Of a stretch of 64,000 nucleotides of DNA, positions 29,863-39,945 are shown piece by piece (positions within the stretch are counted from its first letter, which is position 1; each line of letters opens with the position of its first letter). A program made the translations under genes and the position numbers. Below the pieces are notes generated by a model, which saw nothing but the letters and a program-made list of their open reading frames with translations, was not told the DNA's origin and searched no databases. Source of the stretch: Escherichia coli (GTDB lineage: Bacteria; Pseudomonadota; Gammaproteobacteria; Enterobacterales; Enterobacteriaceae); assembly GCF_051903065.1 (NCBI RefSeq), contig NZ_CP178438.1. One strand, 5' to 3'.

Positions 29863-29949
29863 AAATCCCGACCCTGAGGGGGTCGGGATGAAACTTGCTT
29901 AAGCAAGAAGCACTTAAAAAATTCGTTACACCAGGAAATCTGATGTGTT
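29863..29949 (-). ncRNA. dsrA: DsrA small regulatory RNA (Hfq-dependent; activates rpoS translation, represses hns)
   Basis: Minus-strand sequence AACACATCAGATTTCCTGGTGTAACGAATTTTTTAAGTGCTTCTTGCTTAAGCAAGTTTCATCCCGACCCCCTCAGGGTCGGGATTT matches recalled DsrA, including the terminator stem-loop. Confidence 0.85.
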
Positions 29950-35167: not shown

Positions 35168-35626
35168 ATGTATCCCCTGCGTGTCGATCTGCGCGCTGGC
35201 ACCTTCGCCGCAGATCCACTCTTCCAGACGCTCGGTAAGCGCTTCATCCGTCAGCTTCTCGCGCCCACGTAACGCGCACTCCCAGACAATCAATACGCGC
35301 CAGCCGAGTTCCTGCAAGCGACTGATATCGCGGCGATCGCGCTCAACATTTTTACCTATCTTCTCCAGCCAGAACTCGGTTCGAGTCGCAGGCACTTTAA
35401 ACAGATAGCAGTGATGATGGTGCCAGAAGCAGCCGTGGGTAAATATCACGCAACAATATTCATCAACGACAAAATCCGGGCGTCCGGGCAGACTGGCGTC
35501 CTGAACGCGAAACGCCAGGCCCTGCCCGGTTAACAGACTGGCGAGGCGCTTCTCTATCGCCGTATTACGCGTGGCAATCGCGCGCATATTTTTGCTGCGA
35601 GTGGCCTTATCGTGAACGTCGGCCAT
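35156..35626 (-). CDS. vsr: Very-short-patch repair endonuclease
   Basis: 156-aa product starting [28 protein letters not shown]; its 5' end overlaps the dcm 3' end by 20 nt in another frame. Confidence 0.85.
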
Positions 35627-37025
35627 GTTGTGCCTCTTGCTGACGCAACGCCACCGCCTGTTTGATTTTTGGCTCAAGCAGTTTTGCCACCGCGGCAAAG
35701 ACCGGCACGACCACCGAGTTACCGAGCTGGCGATAGGCCTGAGTGTCCGAAACCGGAATGCGGAATTTCGCTTCTCCCGGCGCTTCAAAACCCATTAAGC
35801 GCGCACATTCCCGAGGCGTTAACCGACGTGGACGATGTTGCTGATTCAGCGGATCGTCAAAGTCTTTCTCACCCGTGGCCATATCCCAGCCGCGATCGAT
35901 TAAAATTTCCGCGCCATCTTTGTAATAACGCGCAGACAGCGTACGCGTGACGCTTTGCGGATTGTTCGGATAAACCATTCCATAACCGAAGCCGTTACCG
36001 CGCGCCTGATGTTTTTTCGCATAACGATAGAGGTACTTCCACAGCACCGGCGTCAGGATATATTTCGCCTCGACCATCGGGTCCAGCAGCTGCGCCAGCG
36101 TCACTCGCTGTGCAGGGAAACATTCGCTGATATCACGCAGAGTAAAATCGGCTTTCAGATTAAGATCGCGACGAAAACCCACCAGCACGATGCGTTCACG
36201 GTGCTGCGGCAGGAAATGTTTACCATCGATGATTTTCGGATCGTCCGGCCCGTTATCTTCTGCATCAGCCACGTCATAGCCCAGTTCGTCCAGCGTCTGC
36301 ATGATGATGCGGAACGTTTTTCCTTTATCGTGACTTTTCAGGTTTTTGACGTTTTCGAGCACAAACATCGCCGGACGACGCGCGTCGATAATACGCACCA
36401 CATCAAAGAACAGCGTGCCCTGGGTATCGCAGGCAAAACCGTGCGCCCGCCCGAGCGAGTTCTTTTTCGATACGCCAGCCAGCGAAAATGGCTGACAAGG
36501 GAAACCGGCCAGTAAAACATCGTGTTCAGGAATGTGTTGACGAATATGTTCCGCCGCCGCCTCATCACTCACGCCTTCTTTATGGCTGAGGGTGATGTCG
36601 CGGATATCTTCATTAAAATGATGCGTCGCCGGGTCGCAATAATGATTGGCTTTATAAGTGCGTACCGCATGTTTGTTCCATTCGCTGGTAAACACGCACT
36701 GTCCGCCAATCGATTCAAAACCGCGACGGATGCCGCCAATTCCGGCAAATAGATCGATAAAGCGAAACGCATAATGCGGATGATGTGCCGGTGGTTTGGG
36801 TAACAACGTTTGCAGATGGGCGAACTCTTTCTCACTTAAACGGTGCCATGCCGAGTCATTCGCCAGCGCACGTTTTAAAATTGCCGCGCTCCAGTGATTC
36901 TCACCCACACCATTAAGCTGCGCCACCAGCGTTTTAACATCATAAATTTGCAGCAGTTTCTCCAGCATTGCCTGTGCGGCATTCCCGGTGCTGTATGAAT
37001 CGGTTACTGATATATTTTCCTGCAT
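35607..37025 (-). CDS. dcm: DNA cytosine-5 methyltransferase (CCWGG)
   Basis: 472-aa ORF with C5-MTase motifs (FAGIGG motif I; PCQPFS catalytic motif IV; ENVKN). Confidence 0.9.
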
Positions 37026-37091: not shown

Positions 37092-37787
37092 TCAGCCCGC
37101 GGGTGAAAACGCATCTATCACCTTGTGATCGACACCTTCATTCTCCCCCGCCAGTTCGGCACTGAGCTTCGCCATAAACTCGACTAAAAATTGCGCGTTG
37201 TGCTGCGCCAGCTGCTTGCCTCTTGCGGTTTGCATGGTTTGCGGTAGCTTCAGCAACTTAGTCTGGAAATGATCCAGCGCGTAGCGTTTATCATCAAGCG
37301 GGCGATGCTGTGCGAACGGATCTTCACCATCAAACAGCGCCATGCCCAATGCCCCTGAAACGGCAAACACGCGCGCCAGGCCAATCGCCCCCAGGGCTTC
37401 CAGCCGATCCGCATCCTGGACGATTTTAGCTTCCGTTGTTAAGGGGGCGATTTGCGCGCTGAAACTGTGAGCGGCAATGGCATGACAAACGGCCTCGATT
37501 TTCTCCGCCGGAAATTGCTCGAACTCTTCACGGAGCAGGCGACGCGTCTCTTCTGCCGCCAGGATTGAAGAACGCTGCCGTTGCGGATGATTTTTCGCCA
37601 GACTCACAATATCGTGGAAATAACAGGCGGTTAAAATCACCAGCATATCGACGTCATCATCTGCCGCCAGCTTCTGTGCCGTAGCCCAGACGCGGCGAAA
37701 ATGACACACGTCATGGGCCGCGTCCTGGTGCTGATGATGGTTTTTCAACCAGTTTTCGAACTGTGCCTGCCAGTGTTGTAAGTCCAT
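37092..37787 (-). CDS. yedJ: HD-domain phosphohydrolase
   Basis: 231-aa ORF with HD motif (H...HD). Confidence 0.8.
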
Positions 37788-37826: not shown

Positions 37827-38210
37827 TTATTCATAGCGTCTGCTACGTGCGGGACGAGGTCGGGTGTACCAGGCAATGCTGCCTAACAATGCCCCGACCA
37901 GAGCCATAAATAAAAATCCGACCAGTGCCCCTAACCACTTTCCCGCGGTAGAGCCTAAATCGCTTTCAAATCCCGACACGGGGGCATCGGGGATCCGGCT
38001 CATCACCCAGATGTAACGCGCCATTGCCCAGACGAAATAGCCACACCATGTATAGAAAGCCCACAAAGCCAGTTTGCCGCCAGGGCTGCGAGAGAGTCTC
38101 TCTTCCATCTTTGTCGAACCGTATTCCATTTTGAGATAACCCGGAAAATTCAGACTTAGTACTATTATGTGATAAAAGTCACATTTTTCCACATTGAATG
38201 AGCCAGTCAA
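37827..38210 (-). CDS. yedR: Inner membrane protein YedR
   Basis: ORF with two transmembrane segments; the reference length is about 121 aa, so the start is uncertain. Confidence 0.65.
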   Translation of the reverse strand: MTGSFNVEKCDFYHIIVLSLNFPGYLKMEYGSTKMEERLSRSPGGKLALWAFYTWCGYFVWAMARYIWVMSRIPDAPVSGFESDLGSTAGKWLGALVGFLFMALVGALLGSIAWYTRPRPARSRRYE

Positions 38211-38349
38211 GACTCAATCATTTTTTGAACAAATAGATAAATTTTGCGCAACGGCAGTGAATACAGGAAAAATCGTTTTGAGCGATTTTATTTATCTTTG
38301 ATATCGGCTTTATTAATTCATTTAATCAATATATTAGCACTGAATACAA

Positions 38350-38447
38350 TTATACCTTTTTATTTTTCTGTGTCATGATGCCTCCGTTATTAGCCTTTTA
38401 TCGTCTTGTTTATATTTTTTGGGCCGGCATGATGCCGGCTTTTTTTA
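38350..38447 (+). ncRNA. rseX: Candidate small RNA (RseX-like) ending at a strong intrinsic terminator
   Basis: Hairpin GCCGGC-ATGAT-GCCGGC followed by TTTTTTTAT at 38423..38448 in the yedR-yedS intergenic region; the 5' end is not determined. RseX is recalled to map to this intergenic region in K-12. Confidence 0.3.
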
Positions 38448-38757
38448 TGCCTTCATTAATGTGCGCGTGATCACACCAGCCGTTTAGCGCAACAATCATT
38501 GATACCCCCTATCTTTCCGCTCAACTCATAACATATTGATATGCATTTATAATCTTCATGAATGCTTATATTTAGAATTCATAATTCTGAATTATATTAA
38601 ATAGATTGGAAACATTTTGAAATCTTTTAAATATATTTGTTACATGTAATCCTTAAAATAAAATGAACTTCATAGAATAGTATCCAAATGTGCTTTTTTT
38701 TGGATAACGGCACTTATTGATATATTCATGAAGATTATAATCACAAGGGAATACATA

Positions 38758-39945
38758 ATGAAAAGAAAAGTTCTGGCAATGCTGGTCCCGGCGTTATTAG
38801 TTGCTGGCGCAGCAAATGCGGCTGAAATTTATAATAAAGATGGCAATAAACTGGATTTGTACGGAAAAGTAGCGGGCCTGCACTACTTCTCTGATGATGC
38901 TGGCAGCGATGGCGACATGTCATATGCCCGTATCGGTTTCAAAGGTGAAACTCAGATCGCTGACCAATTCACTGGTTATGGTCAGTGGGAATTTAACATT
39001 GGCGCAAACGGTCCTGAAAGCGACAAGGGTAATACCGCAACGCGTCTGGCATTTGCAGGTTTCGGCTTTGGTCAGAATGGTACTTTCGACTATGGTCGTA
39101 ACTACGGTGTCGTATATGACGTAGAAGCATGGACCGATATGCTGCCAGAATTTGGTGGCGATACCTATGCTGGCGCTGACAACTTCATGAACGGTCGTGC
39201 TAATGGTGTTGCAACCTACCGTAACAATGGCTTCTTTGGTCAGGTCGATGGCCTGAACTTTGCTCTGCAATATCAGGGTAATAATGAAGATGATGGATTA
39301 TTCGGTCAGGAAGGTTCTGGTAACGGTAATGGCCGTAAGTTAGCTAAAGAGAACGGCGACGGCTTCGGTATGTCCACTTCCTATGACTTCGACTTCGGTT
39401 TAAGTCTGGGTGCTGCATATTCTAACTCTGACCGTACCGACAATCAGGTTCACAAAGGTACTCATAACACTCGTTATGGAGATCGCTTCGATGCAACTGC
39501 TGGCGGTGAAACAGCAGAAGCATGGACCGTTGGTGCTAAATACGACGCTAATAACGTTTACTTAGCAGCTATGTATGCTGAAACCCGTAACATGACTGGT
39601 TACGGTGATGCTGATGCCATCGCTAACAAAACCCAAAACTTTGAAGTTGTTGCTCAGTATCAGTTCGACTTTGGTCTGCGCCCGTCCATCGCTTACCTGC
39701 AATCTAAAGGTAAGGATTTAGGCGGTGTAAATAGTGATAACTTCGACAGCCAGGGTAATCATCACTACACCAACAAAGATCTGGTTAAATATGTTGATAT
39801 TGGTATGACCTACTACTTCAACAAAAACATGTCCACCTATGTTGATTACAAAATCAACCTGCTGGACAACGACGACGACTTCTACAAAGAAAACGGCATC
39901 GCTACCGATGATATCGTTGCTGTGGGCTTAGTCTACCAGTTCTAA
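38758..39945 (+). CDS. yedS: General-diffusion outer-membrane porin (OmpC/OmpF/PhoE family), intact
   Basis: Signal peptide [21 protein letters not shown] followed by [16 protein letters not shown] and C-terminal ...VGLVYQF; RBS AAGGGA upstream of the ATG at 38758. Confidence 0.8.

Follow-up and report, generated by a model that had tools for sequence, protein, structure and literature searches.

An rseX small RNA gene between drpB and an intact yedS-type porin gene in Escherichia coli

The plus strand of the intergenic region between drpB (yedR) and a yedS-type porin gene almost certainly encodes RseX, an already known, curated, and experimentally studied small RNA, in the Escherichia coli window analyzed here (a single stretch of 64,000 nucleotides). 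A covariance-model scan of the whole window at Rfam gathering thresholds returned a full-length match to the rseX family (RF01401; model positions 1 to 94 of 94; 96.7 bits; E value, 4.9e-12). The gathering score of this family is 50, and the K-12 gene reaches 97.7 bits with the same model. The RefSeq annotation of MG1655 lists that gene as the ncRNA rseX (b4603, "small regulatory RNA RseX") at 2033649..2033739 (+), where it is flanked by drpB (b1963) and the pseudogene yedS (b4496); yedJ, dcm, and vsr lie upstream. A sequence-only reading of the window had named RseX as a possibility, based on a strong intrinsic terminator and on the location of the gene in K-12 between yedR (now drpB) and yedS. 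The two comparisons it suggested, with the Rfam model and with an RseX sequence (here K-12 b4603), both came out positive, and the location it gave matches the K-12 annotation. The terminator it described (GCCGGC-ATGAT-GCCGGC followed by a T-run) is present, with the last of seven T's at 38446. Its proposed extent of 38350 to 38447 captured the RNA, but the boundaries are shifted to 38357..38446; the 5' end had been set 7 nt too far upstream, where the likely −10 hexamer TACAAT (38345..38350) ends.

Pairwise alignment with K-12 showed 98% identity across 171 nt, and the RNA itself differs from K-12 rseX by two substitutions and one T-run indel over 90 to 91 nt. Position 38365 (nt 9 of the RNA) is U here and A in K-12, while position 38382 (nt 26) is C here and U in K-12; the latter lies in the loop of the 5' hairpin and gives CCUCC. 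Both substitutions fall outside the invariant core of the RNA. The tail carries seven T's versus eight in K-12, so the RNA is 90 nt versus 91 nt, and promoter position −13 (38344) is A here and T in K-12. The full-length model match, the neighboring genes, the terminator, and the core sequence are all as in K-12. The differences between the two genes are thus allelic only, confined to the RNA and promoter position −13, whereas the downstream porin gene is a pseudogene in K-12 and intact here. The rseX allele in the window is a common allele, and we infer that it behaves in the same way as K-12 RseX.

The gene order dcm, yedJ, drpB (yedR), rseX, and yedS-type porin gene is that of K-12, according to the window open reading frames (ORFs), the K-12 annotation, and the annotation of a strain identical over a 631-bp query, which was used for the neighboring genes (Table 1). 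The rseX and porin genes share the plus strand, and drpB/yedR lies on the minus strand. The drpB start has been mapped experimentally to ATG-22, which corresponds to the upstream of the two annotated starts, at 38129 in the window (PMC7648144). Measured from this start to the porin start at 38758, the intergenic region spans 628 bp, or 649 bp with the shorter drpB annotation. The length of 517 bp given in the sequence-only reading is the distance separating the longest mechanical ORFs (38210 and 38728) and does not hold for the annotated starts. Its remark that no ORF lies upstream on the plus strand is likewise only loosely true, as mechanical ORFs of 44 amino acids (38244..38378) and 31 amino acids (38375..38470) exist. 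The G+C content of the intergenic region is 30.4% versus 48.6% for the window, a composition that fits silencing by H-NS. In the RefSeq annotation of the identical strain, this region is empty and rseX is omitted.

The window also encodes a second small RNA, DsrA, at 29863..29949 (−), with a full-length Rfam match of 102.5 bits, and three tRNA genes at 48174..48260 (−), 49252..49324 (+), and 63631..63703 (−). The last two, each 73 nt long, are identical in sequence and lie on opposite strands, separated by about 14 kb. Such repeated tRNA genes are frequent integration sites for genomic islands.

Table 1. Coordinates of rseX, its sequence elements, and the neighboring genes in the window
Feature	Position	Strand	Basis or remark
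dcm	35607..37025	−	Window ORFs and identical-strain annotation
yedJ	37092..37787	−	Window ORFs and identical-strain annotation
drpB/yedR, shorter annotation	start 38108	−	Identical-strain annotation
drpB/yedR	start 38129 (K-12 start)	−	K-12 annotation; equals mapped ATG-22
Likely rseX −10 hexamer TACAAT	38345..38350	+	−12 to −7 from annotated 5' end; read from sequence
rseX small RNA gene	38357..38446	+	90 nt; RF01401 match and K-12 alignment
Weak 5' hairpin	38370..38394	+	Rfam consensus structure and minimum-free-energy fold
Invariant core, RseX nt 29 to 49 (CGUUAUUAGCCUUUUAUCGUC)	38385..38405	+	Identical in 8 of 8 copies
U-rich spacer UUGUUUAUAUUUUUU, candidate Hfq contact	38406..38420	+	Directly 5' of terminator hairpin; read from sequence
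Rho-independent terminator	38421..38446	+	Stem-loop 38421..38441, then T7 (terminator scan)
yedS-type porin gene	38758..39945	+	Intact, 395 amino acids; PGAP "porin OmpC" in identical strain

RseX is predicted to fold into a weak hairpin at the 5' end, followed by a long single-stranded stretch and the terminator. The terminator reads GCCGGC (38423-38428), ATGAT (38429-38433), GCCGGC (38434-38439), and T7 (38440-38446), and the terminator scan assigns it a 9-pair stem, six pairs of which are G-C, with a loop of 3 nt. In 38100..38800, scanned on both strands, there is no other terminator-like site, against an average of 0.3 in shuffled sequences. The 5' hairpin is formed by the pairs G14-C38 and U15-G37 and by A19-U23 with G30-U34, closing the loop GCCUCC. 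Across the eight homologues, 97.5 to 100% of these positions are paired; the helix hardly varies, and no covariation was found in the eight-sequence alignment, so that conservation neither supports nor refutes this hairpin. The centroid fold retains the terminator hairpin alone, and the overall fold of RseX is no more stable than that of shuffled sequences (z = −1.26). When the Rfam structure is placed on the eight-way alignment, 99% of the positions are paired, and the only compensatory change is in Citrobacter, where the basal pair of the terminator stem is A-U instead of G-C.

The eight copies compared, K-12 included, span Escherichia to Citrobacter. Besides the core at nt 29 to 49, their alignment contains a second invariant block, CUGUGUCAU, and variation is found in the loop of the hairpin, in the U-rich spacer, and in the bases near the promoter. 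A U-rich stretch followed by a terminator hairpin and a 3' poly-U tail is the usual Hfq-binding module of enterobacterial small RNAs.

The likely −10 hexamer is kept or nearly kept in all seven copies for which upstream sequence was compared. The accompanying −35 element is weak (TTAATC at 38322-38327, with a 17-nt spacer), and a consensus scan missed the rseX promoter, with fewer than 4 of 6 matches in the −35. The K-12 gene has a sigma70-type promoter supported by 5' RACE, and its RNA is a primary transcript (PMC8313858). A separate promoter-like site on the plus strand, TTGATA-17-TTTAAT (38298..38326; 10 of 12 consensus matches), lies 24 nt further upstream, and a start from it would yield an RNA of about 114 nt.

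Of 5426 complete E. coli genomes, 4876 (~90%) contain a match to a 111-nt query covering the gene (38340..38450); 993 of these carry it at 99% identity or higher, including one O157:H7 strain at 100%. The sequence is nearly always single and chromosomal, residing on a plasmid in 2 of 4879 places. Its absence from some E. coli lineages agrees with a published survey in which rseX is listed among the small RNA genes that vary within E. coli and Shigella (PMC3318445). A homologue search with a degenerate pattern built from conserved Rfam columns, using one genome per species, recovered copies in Escherichia albertii, Escherichia whittamii, two further Escherichia species, a divergent E. coli, and Citrobacter amalonaticus. 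All of these exceed the Rfam threshold (70.9 to 95.2 bits), and in Citrobacter the locus runs yedJ-yedR-rseX-porin, as in the window.

RseX was isolated as a multicopy suppressor of the loss of the RseP protease (PMC8313858; PMC7648144; PMC1804206). In K-12, it represses ompA and ompC through Hfq according to Douchin et al. 2006, as cited in PMC8313858, and fimB and ihfB are also repressed (PMC8313858; PMC7648144). The gene is silenced by H-NS: native RseX is undetectable in the K-12 wild type and is detected only after H-NS removal, when an hns deletion reveals a band of ~91 nt and a product of ~75 nt (PMC8313858). Hfq dependence, target repression, and H-NS silencing thus come from the K-12 literature; the identity of rseX, its terminator, its synteny, and its conservation are established here, and complementarity of its core to the Shine-Dalgarno regions of ompA and ompC is predicted here.

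Pairing was computed with a windowed hybridization-plus-accessibility calculation, which replaced full-length duplex folding of RseX against 200-nt target regions, as the latter produced unrealistic all-through duplexes. The predicted ompA duplex involves nt 37 to 50 (GCCUUUUAUCGUCU) and positions −21 to −7 of ompA, over the Shine-Dalgarno sequence, with a total energy of −13.3 kcal/mol. For ompC, the K-12 allele is predicted to pair through nt 29 to 44 with positions −15 to +1, covering the Shine-Dalgarno sequence and the start codon. The C at nt 26 of the window allele creates CCUCC, and this allele has a slightly better predicted alternative at ompC −28 to −9 (−12.7 kcal/mol). The ompA site extends one nucleotide past the core, to nt 50, and nearly all of each site falls inside the invariant core. 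Taken alone, these energies are weak evidence, modestly better than shuffles, since dinucleotide shuffles of the RseX body pair equally well in 6 of 60 cases for ompA and in 8 of 60 for ompC. The location of the predicted target sites within the core is the best evidence here and suggests that the invariant core is the functional seed.

These elements can be arranged into a proposed mechanism. A sigma70-type promoter with a weak −35, situated in an AT-rich, H-NS-silenced region, would start transcription at about 38357, and the GC-rich hairpin with its U7 tail would stop it at about 38446, so that an RNA of 90 nt results. Together with Hfq, the conserved single-stranded core (nt 29 to 50) would pair with the ribosome-binding regions of ompA and ompC and, per later work, RseX would also pair with fimB and ihfB. 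Such pairing would block translation and lower mRNA levels, leaving less porin load on the envelope. RseX in this respect resembles MicA (SraD), another Hfq-dependent translational repressor. MicA is a sigmaE-dependent repressor of ompA, and the predicted RseX site on ompA (−21 to −7) overlaps the Shine-Dalgarno-proximal stretch that MicA pairs with. The two RNAs nevertheless have different sequences and loci and are regulated differently, MicA being a member of the sigmaE regulon. RseX lacks an envelope-stress promoter motif and is subject to H-NS silencing (PMC8313858).

Three other explanations of the conserved element were weighed against an rseX gene. The hairpin could be the terminator of a short protein-coding gene, namely, the 31-codon ORF inside the RNA (MMPPLLAFYRLVYIFWAGMMPAFFMPSLMCA; 38375..38470). 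This ORF exists mechanically with an ATG start, and its first ~15 codons lie within the conserved core, which makes the corresponding peptide segment look conserved. The ORF continues through the hairpin, however, and ends 24 nt past the 3' end of the RNA, and its start is preceded by UUUUUCUGUGUC, which contains no Shine-Dalgarno sequence. Indels in the U-rich spacer and the T-run make its length vary between 18 and 42 amino acids among the eight homologues, and the Citrobacter copy starts with ATT rather than ATG. With neither frame, length, nor start codon conserved, we rejected the ORF as a gene, and a coding origin of the hairpin is hardly credible. The element might instead be a terminated leader, or attenuator, whose read-through controls the downstream porin gene. 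The shared strand is compatible with this, and so is the constant arrangement: the porin gene starts 311 to 317 nt past the 3' end of the RNA in all eight genomes, including C. amalonaticus, and is intact (366 to 397 amino acids) in seven of the eight, being broken in K-12 only. Several observations speak against it, namely, the strength of the terminator (a 9-pair stem plus U7), the lack of an alternative anti-terminator structure in the predicted fold, and the weak promoter-like sites between the terminator and the porin gene (38571..38598 and 38637..38664). RseX supplied alone in trans also lowers ompA, fimB, and ihfB reporters (PMC8313858), and an attenuator is accordingly very improbable.

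The remaining explanation holds that the 5' conservation of rseX reflects a promoter on the minus strand and that the plus-strand RNA is incidental. An antisense sigma70-like site, ATGACA-N16-TATAAT (11 of 12 matches; 38376..38349, −), does lie inside the 5' end of rseX, adjoining the rseX −10 in back-to-back orientation. Nowhere else in the 64 kb of the window, on either strand, does a sequence match at least 11 of the 12 sigma70 consensus positions, and the complement of the site's −35, GTGTCAT, is invariant in all eight homologues. An equal site nevertheless arises in 33 of 500 shuffles of the AT-rich region (~7%), the −10 is not kept in E. albertii or Citrobacter, and the drpB promoter has been mapped elsewhere, so this site is not that promoter (PMC7648144). 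On these three grounds, the antisense site is most likely silent or spurious. A minus-strand promoter would also leave unexplained the core at nt 29 to 49, the conserved terminator, and the published trans activity of RseX, and we give this account next to no credence. The preferred reading remains that the element is the rseX gene.

The adjacent porin mRNA was also considered as a target of RseX and rejected. The best predicted site has an energy of −7.6 kcal/mol after opening costs and uses the terminator stem, while pairing at the porin start codon reaches only −6.8 kcal/mol. As a separate observation, the RseX core region (38375..38397) and the signal-peptide coding region of the porin gene (38782..38805) share a stretch on the sense strand, CGTTATTAG, which occurs as ATGATGCCTCCGTTATTAGCC in RseX and as ATGCTGGTCCCGGCGTTATTAGTT in the porin gene. 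This sharing could be due to chance or could be a trace of an origin of RseX from a porin 5' fragment.

The location of rseX beside a yedS-type porin gene parallels MicF-ompC and MicC-ompN, in which a porin-repressing small RNA likewise lies next to the gene of another porin. The linkage of rseX and the porin gene is kept in the eight genomes, and RseX represses other outer membrane proteins. The arrangement differs in orientation, as rseX is codirectional with yedS while micF and micC are divergent from their adjoining porin genes. One could imagine rseX and an intact porin gene as an H-NS-silenced "porin-swap" module, in which desilencing would turn on the YedS-type porin and lower OmpA and OmpC through RseX. 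Such a module seems rather unlikely at present; its basis is limited to the conserved spacing, the intact porin gene in most of the genomes, and the AT-rich intergenic region. The antisense site might add a further layer of control to such a module by transcriptional interference.

The main value of the finding lies in correct annotation, as a sequence scan recovered a real, curated small RNA gene that automated annotation leaves out. Strains with an intact neighboring porin gene, such as the one analyzed here, would be better suited than K-12, in which that gene is broken, to the question of the physiological role of RseX.
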